From Escherichia phage VpaE1_ev108, in sequence record LR597658: 64,000 bases of DNA, one strand, 5' to 3'. The notes beneath the pieces are model-generated. The model was not told where the DNA came from and searched no databases. It saw nothing but the letters and a program-made list of their open reading frames with translations. Positions 3,646-61,995 of the stretch are shown here, one piece after another. How positions within the stretch are numbered: the stretch's first letter is position 1; the number at the start of each line of letters is the position of its first letter. Both the position numbers and the translations under genes were made by a program.

Positions 3646-4194
3646 ATGAAGAAATTGATTCTAGGTTTGTGCTTAATGTTTACAGCACACTTATCTTATG
3701 CAGTTGACTGCCCAGAGCTATCAATTAGCCAAAAAGTGAACATGTTAAAAGCTTACCAGTATGGCGAGAATAACATGGGTAAAGGTTGGGGTATCACTCT
3801 AGCAGCTATAGCCTTACAAGAGTCAGAGTTAGGTCTGAAGGTAGAAAATAAAAAGACACATGATTATGGTATTTTCCAGAATCACTTGAAGACTGTTGTA
3901 AAGCGTAACAAAATTAGCCCTAATGTGGCTAAAAAGAAACTCTTAAGAGACTTTGATTATGCTGCGAAGGAAACTCACAAAGAGCTTGAGTTTTGGACAA
4001 AGGTGCATGGTCAGCCAAAGTCAAAGAAGACTTTACAAAAAGTTTTAGCATCATATAATGCTGGGTATTCGTACAGAATCCCTAAAGCTAAGAAGTATTC
4101 TCAAGATGTCTATAACAACATGAAAGTAATTGCTCAATGTGAATTTGCAACAAACATTTCTAAGGTAAATCATGAAAAAATTAAGAAAGTCTGA
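3646..4194 (+). CDS. secreted lytic transglycosylase-like protein (SLT motifs)
   Basis: signal-peptide-like N-terminus MKKLILGLCLMFTAHLSYA; SLT family-1 motifs ESELG, YGIFQ, SYNAGYS. Confidence 0.5.
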   Translation: MKKLILGLCLMFTAHLSYAVDCPELSISQKVNMLKAYQYGENNMGKGWGITLAAIALQESELGLKVENKKTHDYGIFQNHLKTVVKRNKISPNVAKKKLLRDFDYAAKETHKELEFWTKVHGQPKSKKTLQKVLASYNAGYSYRIPKAKKYSQDVYNNMKVIAQCEFATNISKVNHEKIKKV

Positions 4195-4867
4195 TGAAGT
4201 ACTGTGTCATGCTTATGACTTACATCCTCATGAGTTAGGTCTTGATTCCTGTGTATGGTCTCCAGAACAGTGTAGGGATTTTGAAGACACTGCAAGAGAA
4301 GTTGTATGTTCACTTGAAGAGTTCCACACATCAGAACCAATTGTGAACGTTGTGGACAAAGAGACTGGACAATCTATAGGAGTAAGTCGTGATAGCTTAG
4401 TCATAGTCAATAAAGACCTTGTAGAAAAAGGGAATCTCATCTTAGCAGATATTGATGGTGTTCTTACAAATTTTAATCACGAAGATTGTTCAACGGAATT
4501 GACTGATGGGTCATTCTCACAGTACACTAATCTTCTTGATTCTGTAAGAGCAAAACCAACGTATGTTTTTAGTATTATTGATGCAATTGCTAATCATGCT
4601 GCCATTGGACTCTTGACAGCGAGAGGTGAATCTCAGAGAATACCTACTGAGATGTTTTTAAGGCATAACATAGAGCATGACTACATGCTTTTTATGCGTG
4701 GTTTTGGAACTAACTCTATAAGTGCAGAAAGTTTGAAAGTGAGGATGATTCAGTCTTGCATCCTGCCTTACTTTAATATAGTATGTTTTATAGAAGACAC
4801 AGAGAAGAATGTGCAGAAGGTGAACAGAATCCTTCCACACATTAAAACCATGTTAGTTAAACATTGA
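4172..4867 (+). CDS. HAD-superfamily phosphatase-like protein
   Basis: motif I LILADIDGVL (DxDGx), candidate motif II LLTAR and motif IV FIEDTEKN; overlaps upstream gene by 23 nt. Confidence 0.4.
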   Translation: MKKLRKSDEVLCHAYDLHPHELGLDSCVWSPEQCRDFEDTAREVVCSLEEFHTSEPIVNVVDKETGQSIGVSRDSLVIVNKDLVEKGNLILADIDGVLTNFNHEDCSTELTDGSFSQYTNLLDSVRAKPTYVFSIIDAIANHAAIGLLTARGESQRIPTEMFLRHNIEHDYMLFMRGFGTNSISAESLKVRMIQSCILPYFNIVCFIEDTEKNVQKVNRILPHIKTMLVKH

Positions 4868-4877
4868 GAGAAAACTT

Positions 4878-5342
4878 ATGAACAATATCATTACGGTAGC
4901 ACTGGACGATACGGTAAACAAATCTGCAATAGTTCGTAAAATGATTCAAGGTAACTTTGAAGGTAAAATTTTTCGTGCTGTTAATGTAAAAGCTGATGGC
5001 AGCATTCGTGAATATCGTGCATTATTGAATGTTAAAAAACACGTAAAAGGTGCTGGTTCAACTACTGCACACAAAGAAAACCTGATGACTATCTATGATA
5101 TGGGCAAGGCTTCAGAGTTAGGTGCTGAAGGTATCGTTAAAGAAGGTGCTCCGTATCGCTCTTTCAATCTGGAAACTACTCTTATGCTTTCCTTTACAAG
5201 TGGTTCTAAAACAATCACTTATCTCTTTACTGATGCTGCAACGGTATCTGCTATTAAGGATAGCACTGTCAAAGCTGGCGTAGTTGCTGCTGCAAAAGCT
5301 TCTTCGATGGCTGCGAATATCCTTGCTAAAGTCCTCGGTTAA
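4878..5342 (+). CDS. hypothetical protein
   Basis: 154 aa ORF, GAGAG SD upstream, terminator downstream. Confidence 0.55.
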   Translation: MNNIITVALDDTVNKSAIVRKMIQGNFEGKIFRAVNVKADGSIREYRALLNVKKHVKGAGSTTAHKENLMTIYDMGKASELGAEGIVKEGAPYRSFNLETTLMLSFTSGSKTITYLFTDAATVSAIKDSTVKAGVVAAAKASSMAANILAKVLG

Positions 5343-5353
5343 GGTTAAGATAC

Positions 5354-5380
5354 AGGCTCCTTCGGGAGCCTTTTTCATTT
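5354..5380 (+). terminator. intrinsic terminator
   Basis: AGGCTCC-ttcg-GGAGCCT hairpin followed by TTTTTCATTTT. Confidence 0.65.
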
Positions 5381-5394
5381 TAGGAGATTGTTAA

Positions 5395-5742
5395 ATGACA
5401 TTTAAAGAGTTCTGTCAAGCTACTTTCATAATTGTTTTCTTAGTTGGTGCAGGTGTCTGGGGAGGATACTCTTACAGAGACTATCAAGTTGCTGAAACTG
5501 AGCTAAATAATGAGAAACTAATAAGTGTTGCTAAAGATGCTTATCAGGAAGGTTTAGCCACACTCAGCACCAATTACAAAAATGATTTGAAAGACGTGCT
5601 TGCTAAGAATAAGCACACAAAAGAGGTACTAACATATGAAAAGACTAAGCCAGAGTTTTATAATGTTTGTGTTACTGATAATTATGTCAGGGTGTTCAAC
5701 GAACAAAGTGAACAGTACATTCAAAAACTCCCAAGTAAGTGA
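5395..5742 (+). CDS. membrane protein with N-terminal TM helix (i-spanin-like architecture?)
   Basis: hydrophobic segment FIIVFLVGAGVWGG then charged helical region; GGAGA SD upstream. Confidence 0.45.
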   Translation: MTFKEFCQATFIIVFLVGAGVWGGYSYRDYQVAETELNNEKLISVAKDAYQEGLATLSTNYKNDLKDVLAKNKHTKEVLTYEKTKPEFYNVCVTDNYVRVFNEQSEQYIQKLPSK

Positions 5743-5905
5743 GAGTGACAAGTACACTCAAGAAGAGTCAAGATTCACTGTCAAAGGTAATACTGGTAGT
5801 GATGTGGCAGCAGCCCTTGAGTTTTATCGTGATGGTTTTTACCAGTGCACAATCAAAGCTAATAACCTTATTGATATGATTTTATTAGGAAACAAACAGC
5901 AATGA
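5636..5905 (+). CDS. small lipoprotein (o-spanin-like or exclusion lipoprotein?)
   Basis: lipobox-like signal MKRLSQSFIMFVLLIIMSGC; starts inside 3' end of preceding gene in another frame; AGAGG SD upstream. Confidence 0.45.
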   Translation: MKRLSQSFIMFVLLIIMSGCSTNKVNSTFKNSQVSESDKYTQEESRFTVKGNTGSDVAAALEFYRDGFYQCTIKANNLIDMILLGNKQQ

Positions 5906-6171
5906 CAGAGAATGAAGACACTTTCTATGTAGAAGGGTACTTACTACTACCACGACCAAAAGAAACTTATATGCGTGTTGATTTCTCACCAACCATTATG
6001 GACAACGTGATGTGTCATATCTTTATGCAAGGTGTCACAGCACAGCTTAAGCATGTTGGTAAAGAGTGCAAAATAAAGGTTGACACTCATCCAGAAATCA
6101 AAGAGAATCACTACACATGGTTCTTACCAGACTCTAAAGAAATCTTAGCAGTTCTTAAAACGAGGAAATGA
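5902..6171 (+). CDS. hypothetical protein
   Basis: 89 aa ORF, ATGA start/stop overlap with upstream gene. Confidence 0.5.
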   Translation: MTENEDTFYVEGYLLLPRPKETYMRVDFSPTIMDNVMCHIFMQGVTAQLKHVGKECKIKVDTHPEIKENHYTWFLPDSKEILAVLKTRK

Positions 6172-6482
6172 TTATGCAATTCCAGCCAACAAATCGTGGA
6201 TTTTCTTATGCAGAATTTAAAGATGCTAAAGGGGAAATTTGTACTTTACAAGAGAGTTCATCATATGAACCATGTATCTGGTTAGGTGCTAAAGAGGTCT
6301 CTGTTCAGTACCTAGATGGTGGCTGGAAAACACTTGATATCCCAGCATTAGTAGGCAAAGATTTTGTAGGTAACCAAAGAATGAAACTCAATCAAGAACA
6401 GGTAAAAGAACTGTTGCCGTACCTTCAATACTTTGCTGAAAATGGTGAATTACCAACAGAGGAACTTACAAATGCAGATTAA
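6168..6482 (+). CDS. hypothetical protein
   Basis: 104 aa ORF, GAGGA SD, coupled to upstream gene. Confidence 0.5.
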   Translation: MIMQFQPTNRGFSYAEFKDAKGEICTLQESSSYEPCIWLGAKEVSVQYLDGGWKTLDIPALVGKDFVGNQRMKLNQEQVKELLPYLQYFAENGELPTEELTNAD

Positions 6483-21003: not shown

Positions 21004-21468
21004 TTATTTTGGATATACACTGTCAAGATAAATGTCAGCTTCCATTCTACGTCTGTTTTTCAGGCCGTTTGAAGTGACCTTCTTACCTTTTACTGTGACC
21101 TTGTTCCACCACTGCATAGCTTCTGCACAACCGACCTTATTACCAGCATTGTGGCGCTTGATAAATGTAGAGTCCTGCATAGCTGTGATACCAATGTTGT
21201 ATGTTTCACTTACAAGTGCATCAAACTCATTCTGAGAAGTTGGAACCTTGATGGCTTTGTTCACTGCTGCAACGAACTTTTCAACATCTGCAAGAAGATA
21301 CTGTTCAGCTTGTTCAGCGGTAATCTTCATACCCATCTTAACAGGCTTCCCACCAATACGAATTGTCCCATACCCAATTGTGGGGATTCCAGCAGAATCT
21401 TCGTAAGCCTCAAGCTTAAGACCTTCAAAGAACTTAATAGCTTCTAAACCTTTTCTTGAGAGTTGCAT
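21004..21468 (-). CDS. endolysin, T4-type lysozyme (GH24)
   Basis: LEAIKFFEGLKLEAYEDSAGIPTIGYGT matches the catalytic Glu/Asp/Thr region of T4 lysozyme-family proteins. Confidence 0.8.
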   Translation of the reverse strand: MQLSRKGLEAIKFFEGLKLEAYEDSAGIPTIGYGTIRIGGKPVKMGMKITAEQAEQYLLADVEKFVAAVNKAIKVPTSQNEFDALVSETYNIGITAMQDSTFIKRHNAGNKVGCAEAMQWWNKVTVKGKKVTSNGLKNRRRMEADIYLDSVYPK

Positions 21469-29068: not shown

Positions 29069-29626
29069 ATGAGATATTTGAAGTATGCTTCATGGATTTT
29101 CTTAGCTTTGTTAGAACCATTTGCAGCAATCTTAGCAGTTATCTTAGCACCTTTTGTAGTTCCATTCTACAGTGAGAAGAAAGGACACTTACCTTTCGGG
29201 TTCAGATGGATGGAGACATATGACAACCCAATTGATGGTGATGAAGGTCACGTTAAAAGATGGGCTAATATTAGATGGATTGGTAAACTAGGTGTCTACA
29301 TGCAAAGAGTCGGATGGCTCTGGAGAAACAAAGCTTATAACTTCTCTTACCATGTGTTAGGAAGAGATGTAAAAGATGTTACTAAGTGGAAAGGTAATAT
29401 CAACGTAAGTTCTAACCCTGAAGATAATCAGACAGGTTATCTCCTAATGTGGAACAGTAATGCTTGGGGATTATTCGCTTTTACCCCATCAATTAAAATC
29501 TTTGGTAAACAGTTTTACTGGAGAATTTATATTGGGTGGAAGCTAAAAAGTGTTGTCCCAGAAGAAAGAGCATTCTCAAGGGAAAGAGTTATGTTGGCAT
29601 TCTTTATTCATCCACTAAGAAAGTAA
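29069..29626 (+). CDS. hypothetical Trp-rich membrane protein embedded in tRNA island
   Basis: 185 aa ORF; N-terminal hydrophobic segment WIFLALLEPFAAILAVILAPFVV; AAGAGG SD; TTA/AGA-rich codon usage unlike structural genes. Confidence 0.55.
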   Translation: MRYLKYASWIFLALLEPFAAILAVILAPFVVPFYSEKKGHLPFGFRWMETYDNPIDGDEGHVKRWANIRWIGKLGVYMQRVGWLWRNKAYNFSYHVLGRDVKDVTKWKGNINVSSNPEDNQTGYLLMWNSNAWGLFAFTPSIKIFGKQFYWRIYIGWKLKSVVPEERAFSRERVMLAFFIHPLRK

Positions 29627-61737: not shown

Positions 61738-61995
61738 TCACTCAATAACCGTAGTATGTGATTGACCATTTTTGCCATAGCTATAAGATGTTGTTGTTTG
61801 AGAGTTTGGGCATCTGACAACAACAATATCTCTGCTTATAGCATCACCATTGAGTTTGTAGATTTTGCAGTCTTGCATCTCTGGAGGGAGGCTGTAAGAA
61901 GCATCTTTGTTTTCATAAGATGGGTTGCAGCCAGCCAGAAAAATTACTCCAAGTGCAACCATTGCTTTCACACAACTCTTAACCTTATTGTTCAC
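61738..61995 (-). CDS. small lipoprotein
   Basis: lipobox MVALGVIFLAGC; 85 aa. Confidence 0.55.
   Translation of the reverse strand: MNNKVKSCVKAMVALGVIFLAGCNPSYENKDASYSLPPEMQDCKIYKLNGDAISRDIVVVRCPNSQTTTSYSYGKNGQSHTTVIE

Follow-up and report, generated by a model that had tools for sequence, protein, structure and literature searches.

The overlapping gene pair at 5395-5905

We have analysed a 64,000-nucleotide stretch of DNA from Escherichia phage VpaE1_ev108 (sequence record LR597658), hereafter the window, and in it a pair of overlapping plus-strand genes at positions 5395 to 5905 that probably encodes a two-component spanin. The window is Felixounavirus DNA; the region is 97-98% identical to many genomes of this genus of Felix O1-like myophages, and 257 phage records match it. 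An earlier interpretation, made from the letters of the DNA alone (the sequence-only reading), had pointed to a 115 amino acid (aa) transmembrane protein that is overlapped in another frame by an 89 aa lipoprotein with its own Shine-Dalgarno sequence. The open reading frames (ORFs), the sequence and the scans described here confirm this arrangement. For brevity the two genes are called the i-spanin and the o-spanin gene, names that anticipate the interpretation reached further below.

The i-spanin gene (5395..5742, plus strand, taken from the ORF list) starts with ATG and encodes 115 aa, beginning with the residues MTFKEFCQATFIIVFLVGAGVWGGYSY. A transmembrane scan found one hydrophobic segment at residues ~6-27 and no other, and the homologues are built in the same way. 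The protein is therefore expected to have a type II topology, with the N-terminus in and the C-terminus out, and the rest of the chain would be periplasmic. This periplasmic domain comprises 88 residues, contains C92 as its single cysteine and includes the conserved C-terminal motif KPxFxNxCxxDxYVRxFNE. The Shine-Dalgarno sequence AGGAG can be read at 5382..5386 on the plus strand, 8 nucleotides (nt) upstream of the ATG. It is kept in relatives and is the one that SpaninDB gives for the Felix01 i-spanin.

The o-spanin gene (5636..5905, plus strand, likewise in the ORF list) also starts with ATG and encodes a precursor of 89 aa. Its reading frame is +1 relative to that of the 115 aa gene, and a stretch of 107 nt (5636..5742, plus strand) is dual-coding, serving as i-spanin codons 81-115 with the stop codon and as o-spanin codons 1-36. 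The Shine-Dalgarno sequence of the o-spanin gene, GAGGT (5623..5627, plus strand), is located within the coding part of the i-spanin gene and precedes the second ATG by 8 nt. The precursor starts MKRLSQSFIMFVLLIIMSG/CST, the slash standing before Cys20, and shows a basic n-region, a hydrophobic core, the lipobox LIIMSG/C and a serine at position +2. With serine and no aspartate at this position, sorting to the outer membrane is expected. The mature protein has 70 aa and not a single proline, and its Cys71, which is nearly invariant, falls within a predicted C-terminal helix. When the full 64 kilobases (kb) were scanned for lipoboxes in six frames, only two lipoprotein ORFs were credible, 5636-5905 and 61738-61995, in line with the lipobox signal noticed earlier. 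In two-component spanins the o-spanin gene may be embedded in the i-spanin gene, overlap it or follow it directly; here it overlaps, and an overlap is also seen in distant lineages.

Both reading frames are under purifying selection

The comparison set consisted of 32 related loci, representing 30 distinct DNA sequences down to about 76% protein identity, which were collected in part with a single i-spanin sequence as query. In all of them the two proteins measure 115 and 89 aa and the overlap spans 107 nt. The lipobox is conserved in 32/32 of these close relatives and also in distant ones, and AAGAGGT, which contains the o-spanin Shine-Dalgarno sequence, is unchanged in 32/32 loci.

In the part of the i-spanin gene that is read in one frame only, the variable sites fall on 60/80 third, 22/81 first and 14/80 second codon positions, with a nucleotide diversity of 0.111. 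The ratio of nonsynonymous to synonymous polymorphism (pN/pS) in this frame is 0.149 (pS 0.355), while the off-frame controls give 0.92 and 1.58. The corresponding values for the o-spanin gene bear on the possibility that the lipoprotein ORF arose as an open frame by chance, running in and past the 115 aa gene and not translated. This idea could draw on the annotation record, in which gene callers often skip the ORF or shorten its start, leaving records with no o-spanin coding sequence or with a 73 aa version; for one phage, a comparative Felixounavirus paper even lists the o-spanin under 'not found'. However, the 163 nt that belong to the o-spanin gene alone vary at 46/55 third positions as compared to 16/54 first and 8/54 second positions of its frame (nucleotide diversity 0.147), and pN/pS is 0.107 (pS 0.554) against 2.08 and 2.11 in the two other frames. 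The conservation of length, lipobox and GAGGT in every one of the 32 loci speaks against a chance frame as well, and homologues with as little as ~30% identity retain the signal, the lipobox and the conserved cysteine. We regard the likelihood of a chance ORF as negligible.

Within the overlap, 9/35, 7/36 and 10/36 sites are variable by codon position, so that neither frame is biased, and nucleotide diversity is 0.050. Here pN/pS is 0.494 in the i-spanin frame (pS 0.091) and 0.822 in the o-spanin frame (pS 0.062). Synonymous change is suppressed in the overlap, and diversity is about half that of the single-coded flanks. From the distribution of substitutions over the codon positions it is evident that purifying selection acts on both frames. 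Thus, the objection that the lipoprotein ORF might not be translated, which the sequence-only reading had itself named as the finding that would overturn it, is answered: the frame is clearly selected as protein. Many GenBank records of the genus have one or both genes as 'hypothetical' or call the truncated 73 aa o-spanin. The selection on both frames, together with the conserved GAGGT, lends support to the 89 aa start.

Families, lysis genes and comparison with known spanins

The pair has a prior record. SpaninDB (Kongari 2018, PMC6139136) places the Felix01 pair in its 'ovl' class, with the i-spanin p014 of 115 aa and an o-spanin of 89 aa, and the same paper gives a 107-nt overlap for both Felix01 and wV8. 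The window i-spanin differs from p014 in two residues and has an equal Shine-Dalgarno context. The Felix O1 genes are the same pair in lengths, overlap and position after rIIA, rIIB and polynucleotide kinase. They differ by strain-level substitutions only, and their SpaninDB assignment is bioinformatic, not experimental. Among GenBank relatives, i-spanin and o-spanin labels are found in momo, JN01, Mushroom, Moogle and others. The first cataloguing of the Felix O1 spanin pair is said to go back to Summer et al. in 2007. Since the Felix O1 pair stands in SpaninDB and in the annotations of relatives, the spanin pair described here is a rediscovery of a catalogued, already known feature.

The protein families point in the same direction. 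The i-spanin matches PHROG 1152 'Rz-like spanin' with an E value of 8e-42, and this family is also matched by the homologues from a P2/HP1-like phage, a Klebsiella phage, a Kuravirus and Pectobacterium phage Wc4. The o-spanin matches PHROG 4180 (E 9e-51) and PHROG 2425 (E 1.9e-9), both of which are without a functional label. A weak match to PHROG 456 (E 6e-5; hhalign E 0.005, probability 6.7%) was also found, and PHROG 456 is the family of P2 LysC, because LysC itself scores 1.7e-31. By tblastn the i-spanin is detected in 405 phage records and the o-spanin in 337. Outside Felixounavirus the homologues come from other Ounavirinae (Erwinia, Hafnia and Pectobacterium phages), Kuravirus podophages, a P2/HP1-like Salmonella phage and a Klebsiella phage. 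In all cases that were inspected, the PHROG 1152 gene was accompanied by a PHROG 2425/4180 lipoprotein gene, whose start lies inside the i-spanin gene. Pfam returned sub-threshold noise only for both proteins, NCBIfam and PADLOC gave no meaningful match for the pair, and a search of the Protein Data Bank (PDB) sequences found no relatives.

In the family alignments C92 of the i-spanin is invariant across four aligned lineages and C71 of the o-spanin nearly so; the conserved C-terminal motif of the o-spanin reads G-TG-D...Y...Y..C...N-L. A periplasmic cysteine is present in 507/528 two-component spanins (Kongari 2018, PMC6139136). By analogy, C92 and C71 fit this rule and probably have a role in disulfide formation.

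The most telling evidence comes from the gene order around distant homologues. In Salmonella phage SI7 (Peduoviridae) the order is holin, endolysin, i-spanin and overlapped lipoprotein. Prophage contigs with the homologues P0008 or P0027 show Phage_holin_3_2, Peptidase_M15_4, i-spanin and o-spanin, and in Salmonella prophage contigs with P0001 the pair follows Peptidase_M15_4 and DUF2644. In Klebsiella phage phi_270 a GH108/PG_binding_3 endolysin and an 80 aa membrane protein are found upstream of the pair. The context of P0045, which is found in a rearranged P2-like prophage fragment, is uninformative. Wc4 is itself a member of the Ounavirinae, and in it the pair stands directly 3' of the endolysin gene. 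The Wc4 endolysin shares 44% identity (E 8e-35) with that of the window, and the genes upstream of it correspond to genes beside the window endolysin. Judged from these sequence matches, the same endolysin and spanin pair are contiguous in Wc4 and 15 kb apart in Felix O1-like phages. The Wc4 order of endolysin, i-spanin and o-spanin thus connects, in a simple evolutionary way and inside a single subfamily, lysis genes arranged as a cassette with scattered ones.

Several of these o-spanin genes are without annotation in their records: those of Wc4 (pair at L045 1794-2752, lipobox LSISA/C, i-spanin of 119 aa), SI7 (L005 3468-3764) and phi_270 (L006 3501-3749). A further observation concerns the Kuraviruses, in which the spanin pair is likewise remote from the endolysin. 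In Kuravirus-like metagenome contigs (L048 2075-3112, L050/L051 2134-3174) an HNH_3/AP2 homing-endonuclease gene is situated between the i- and the o-spanin gene. In these contigs the C-terminal residues 95-116 of the i-spanin are duplicated past the endonuclease, and a remnant of the o-spanin N-terminus is found inside the i-spanin gene. The same pair is plainly overlapped in Kuravirus IMEP8 (L004). From the sequence arrangement it looks as if insertion of a homing endonuclease turned an overlapped Kuravirus-like pair into a separated one.

In the window itself the endolysin, a soluble lysozyme, is encoded at 21004..21468 on the minus strand and was identified by tblastn with 99% identity to the annotated VpaE1 endolysin. 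It is 15.1 kb from the spanin pair. A putative class III holin of 185 aa with one N-terminal transmembrane helix is encoded within the cluster of transfer RNA genes (29069..29626, plus strand), 23 kb away from the pair. Linkage of the spanin genes to holin and endolysin, a frequent but not an obligatory trait of spanins, is hence not seen in the window. The holin candidate probably corresponds to the gene annotated as class III 'holin' in phage Mushroom, as suggested by its same size and position; the Mushroom label itself apparently derives from topology alone. The candidate belongs to PHROG 2143, which has no assigned function, and is without a match in NCBIfam. The distance of the pair from the endolysin, which the sequence-only reading had raised as a doubt, is real. 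However, it is no objection to a spanin, because such scattering is normal in Felix O1-like phages and the functional spanins of T4 are remote as well. The genome paper on Moogle describes the lysis genes of Felix O1-like phages as 'scattered around the genome', and their lysis system has been termed 'T4-like' (PMC4392139).

These contexts also bear on superinfection exclusion, the rival function proposed by the sequence-only reading. In this case the 89 aa lipoprotein would be a factor like T5 Llp or Cor, made early and blocking the receptor or DNA entry to protect the infected cell from a second infection, while the transmembrane protein would be unrelated or accessory. T5 Llp and Cor are likewise small phage lipoproteins made during infection. 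A small lipoprotein without a proline-rich region, encoded in an early-looking run of plus-strand genes far from the endolysin and placed in an unlabelled family (PHROG 4180), would be compatible with such a role. However, exclusion lipoproteins of this type are encoded by stand-alone genes beside receptor-binding-protein or tail genes. The lipoprotein gene in the window is always overlapped with the i-spanin gene and coupled to a PHROG 1152 membrane partner in every lineage examined. Its distant homologues are part of holin-endolysin cassettes in temperate P2/HP1-like phages, and in Wc4 they come directly after the endolysin. No receptor-binding or tail-fibre gene is a neighbour; the neighbours are rIIA/B, polynucleotide kinase and small hypothetical genes. 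The lack of any match in PADLOC, NCBIfam or the PDB sequences and the early placement of the functional T4 spanins add to these arguments. Exclusion as the function of the pair is thus highly improbable and we do not follow the earlier suggestion here.

Comparison of the proposed spanin with well-studied pairs shows similarities in layout and marked differences in sequence. In P2 LysB/LysC the layout is the same, with an o-spanin gene that starts inside and ends beyond the i-spanin gene. P2 LysC and the window o-spanin are alike in the lipobox, the linker and a conserved cysteine-bearing C-terminal part, although the sequence similarity is marginal (the hhalign probability given above). P2 LysB belongs to a different i-spanin family (PHROG 89). 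Homology of the window i-spanin to LysB was considered and rejected, as no similarity was detected and the PHROGs differ. In contrast to the window pair, the P2 spanin genes reside inside a holin-endolysin cassette.

Lambda Rz/Rz1 follows the same two-component logic of a type II inner-membrane protein and an outer-membrane lipoprotein, encoded in two frames and with periplasmic cysteines. The lambda genes are embedded and located in the S-R-Rz cassette, whereas the window genes are overlapped. Lambda Rz1 is proline-rich and unstructured, while the window o-spanin is proline-free and has neither a proline-rich region nor the central penta-proline of the lambda Rz1 type. Lambda Rz has two coiled-coil helices; for the Felix01 i-spanin a coiled coil is not predicted, and 58/88 residues are given as helical (tables of Kongari 2018, PMC6139136). 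The sequence-only reading was right about the missing proline-rich character, which it took as a reason for doubt. Such a region is a trait of the lambda Rz1 family, and zero prolines therefore exclude this family and not the spanin class.

The arrangement in T4 shows further similarities. The precursors of PseT.3 and PseT.2 measure 117 and 99 aa as compared to 115 and 89 aa in the window, and both o-spanins are without a proline-rich region and have a predicted C-terminal helix. Both pairs are far from holin and endolysin (genes t and e in T4) and beside a polynucleotide kinase gene in an early-type region. The T4 gene order is alc, pseT.3, pseT.2, pseT.1, pseT (polynucleotide kinase), which is reversed with respect to the window. 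T4 pseT.3/pseT.2 are functional, since they complement lambda Rz-am Rz1-am, and their genes are classed as 'separated', without the 107-nt overlap (Kongari 2018, PMC6139136). The T4 i-spanin has 0 and the o-spanin 2 cysteines, whereas the window pair has 1 and 1. Going by a low-confidence model, the layout of the window o-spanin resembles the T4 description more than that of lambda. Homology to PseT.3/PseT.2, to which the kinase neighbourhood had prompted us, was rejected on sequence, with BLASTP E values of 18 and 8.3 and with the T4 proteins in other families (PHROGs 739 and 812). As a separate observation, the spanin pair is within one gene of polynucleotide kinase (pseT) in an rII/early-type region both in the window (4172-5905) and in T4 (L013 2503-4282). 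This shared kinase neighbourhood could be a coincidence or an old common neighbourhood.

On balance, we read the overlapping genes as the two-component spanin of a Felix O1-like myophage, with a probability of roughly 0.88. The SpaninDB entry, the PHROG 1152 match and the lysis context of the homologues all support this assignment, which the sequence-only reading had offered as one of two options. It had also been stated that a canonical spanin pair elsewhere would speak against it; we found no second spanin-like pair and no further lipoprotein in the 64-kb window or in positions 1-30,000 and 60,000-88,403 of the relative VpaE1, the part homologous to VpaE1 30,000-60,000 being covered by the scan of the window. 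Several points weigh on the other side. Spanin function is deduced here from architecture, homology and context, and a literature search found no experimental report on the spanin family of PHROG 1152 with 4180/2425. The pair is 15 kb from the endolysin, inside an early-looking plus-strand run of small genes, and is immediately preceded by a terminator-like hairpin that is conserved. PHROG 4180, to which the o-spanin belongs, is unlabelled, and the tie of the o-spanin to the P2 LysC family is weak. BLASTP revealed no similarity to the T4 proteins, and similarity to lambda Rz/Rz1 was not detected, with zero prolines and no predicted coiled coil on the side of the window. The AlphaFold2 models are of low confidence for both subunits. 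The o-spanin model, with a predicted local distance difference test (pLDDT) score of 60.6, suggests that residues 21-44 form a disordered linker and that C71 lies in a C-terminal helix spanning residues 54-85. The i-spanin model, made from the single sequence, is all-helical and has a mean pLDDT of only 48.7. Interaction of the two subunits would be expected by analogy.

Expression, proposed function and the second lipoprotein gene

The gene order in the window is rIIA, rIIB, a 182 aa gene, polynucleotide kinase, a 154 aa gene, i-spanin and o-spanin. Between the 154 aa gene and the i-spanin Shine-Dalgarno sequence, a consensus scan found a GC-rich, terminator-like hairpin, AGGCTCC-TTCG-GGAGCCT followed by a T-run (5354..5379, plus strand). 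The stem is identical in 30/32 related loci, the hairpin ends ~15 nt before the i-spanin start codon, and it is labelled 'terminator' in phage AYO145A. A conserved hairpin right before the i-spanin Shine-Dalgarno sequence suggests expression by read-through; if the hairpin terminates transcription, the spanin pair would be expressed in this way. The downstream, translationally coupled small genes (5902-6171, 6168-6482 onward) would, together with the spanin genes, need read-through or processing. A literature search found no Felixounavirus transcriptome data on expression timing.

A side observation concerns the 182 aa protein (3646-4194, plus strand), which is encoded 1.2 kb upstream of the spanin genes and has a signal-peptide-like N-terminus, MKKLILGLCLMFTAHLSYA. 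It shows a sub-threshold Pfam match to an SLT transglycosylase (E 1.2e-3) and belongs to PHROG 600, without an assigned function. Public labels disagree: momo and Zyzzx have it as 'putative lysin', Mushroom as 'endoribonuclease, T4 RegB-like' and other records as 'hypothetical'.

How the two proteins might work can be outlined along the established spanin model for lambda and T4 from the Young laboratory, as summarised in PMC6139136. From these two paradigms we carry over, by analogy, the topology, the assembly into complexes, the disulfides, the restraining effect of peptidoglycan and the fusion of membranes. The 115 aa protein would insert into the inner membrane via its N-terminal helix (N-in, C-out) and extend its 88-residue, largely helical domain into the periplasm. 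After export, the 89 aa protein would be lipidated at Cys20 and processed by signal peptidase II, and with Ser at +2 the Lol system would sort it to the outer membrane, into the inner leaflet. The two proteins would then bind each other by their C-terminal parts, and the resulting complexes would reach across the periplasm and through the peptidoglycan mesh, probably stabilised by intermolecular disulfides between C92 and C71. Such complexes could build up harmlessly from early infection on, held back by the intact peptidoglycan. Once a holin, for which 29069-29626 is the candidate, frees the endolysin encoded at 21004-21468 and the wall is degraded, the complexes would be able to move and change shape. 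The freed complexes would fuse or disrupt the outer membrane as the last step of lysis. Early or constitutive expression of a spanin would be harmless, because the intact wall keeps it inactive, and for this reason the location in an early region would be no objection to the spanin assignment.

The same location could be seen in a different light if the pair, though derived from a spanin, has become an envelope complex with another main job in Felix O1-like phages, such as envelope remodelling or early exclusion, with the outer membrane being disrupted by something else. The pair would have moved from an endolysin-adjacent site, as in Wc4, to the rII/polynucleotide kinase region and behind a conserved terminator-like hairpin, and the o-spanin has lost all prolines within a diverged family (PHROG 4180 versus 2425). 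However, the C-terminal motifs and the cysteines are kept in both subunits, and the placement of the T4 genes is compatible with normal spanin function. Furthermore, there is no other spanin candidate in the window or in the scanned parts of VpaE1, and the phage would therefore be left without an outer-membrane disruption function. We consider such a change of function quite improbable. There are also variants that keep the spanin and assign something novel to it. A relocated, proline-free spanin that is expressed early by read-through of the hairpin might have a pre-lysis role in exclusion or envelope remodelling, or a helical o-spanin might disrupt the membrane in a manner unlike lambda-type fusion; separately, the second lipoprotein family, PHROG 902, might be a new exclusion factor. 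Novelty of this kind is unlikely.

The second lipoprotein gene, which the sequence-only reading had listed as a further exclusion candidate, is real, with the correction that it is on the minus strand (61738..61995). It has a GTG start and encodes 85 aa with the lipobox FLAG/C and two further cysteines. The protein falls into PHROG 902 (E 4.5e-18), which has no assigned function. Homologues of this type occur in 591 phage records, among them ~300 Vibrio phages, Acinetobacter phages, rV5-like phages, enterobacterial phages and a jumbo phage. They retain the lipobox and both cysteines and are always surrounded by small early-type genes. VpaE1 lacks the gene at the syntenic site. In Acinetobacter phage QH4 a homologue is located ~400 bp upstream of a gene annotated as 'immunity protein imm'. 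At the locus in the window there is no adjacent gene for a transmembrane partner, and the reading of the protein as a u-spanin was rejected, as it has no C-terminal transmembrane domain. The second lipoprotein is not a spanin, because both an adjacent membrane partner and a C-terminal transmembrane domain are missing, and it is unrelated to the spanin system. A role as an exclusion factor is possible, and we offer it as a guess.

The discovery value of this analysis is small, and it amounts to a clean confirmation and a correction of doubts that had been raised earlier. What it adds is the evidence for selection on both frames, the link between endolysin and spanin genes in Wc4 and grounds for preferring the 89 aa start in the o-spanin gene. 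Biocontrol of Salmonella and E. coli makes use of Felix O1-like phages, and their full set of lysis genes is hence worth knowing. Experimental work on this proline-free spanin family would widen the view of the spanin mechanism beyond lambda and T4.

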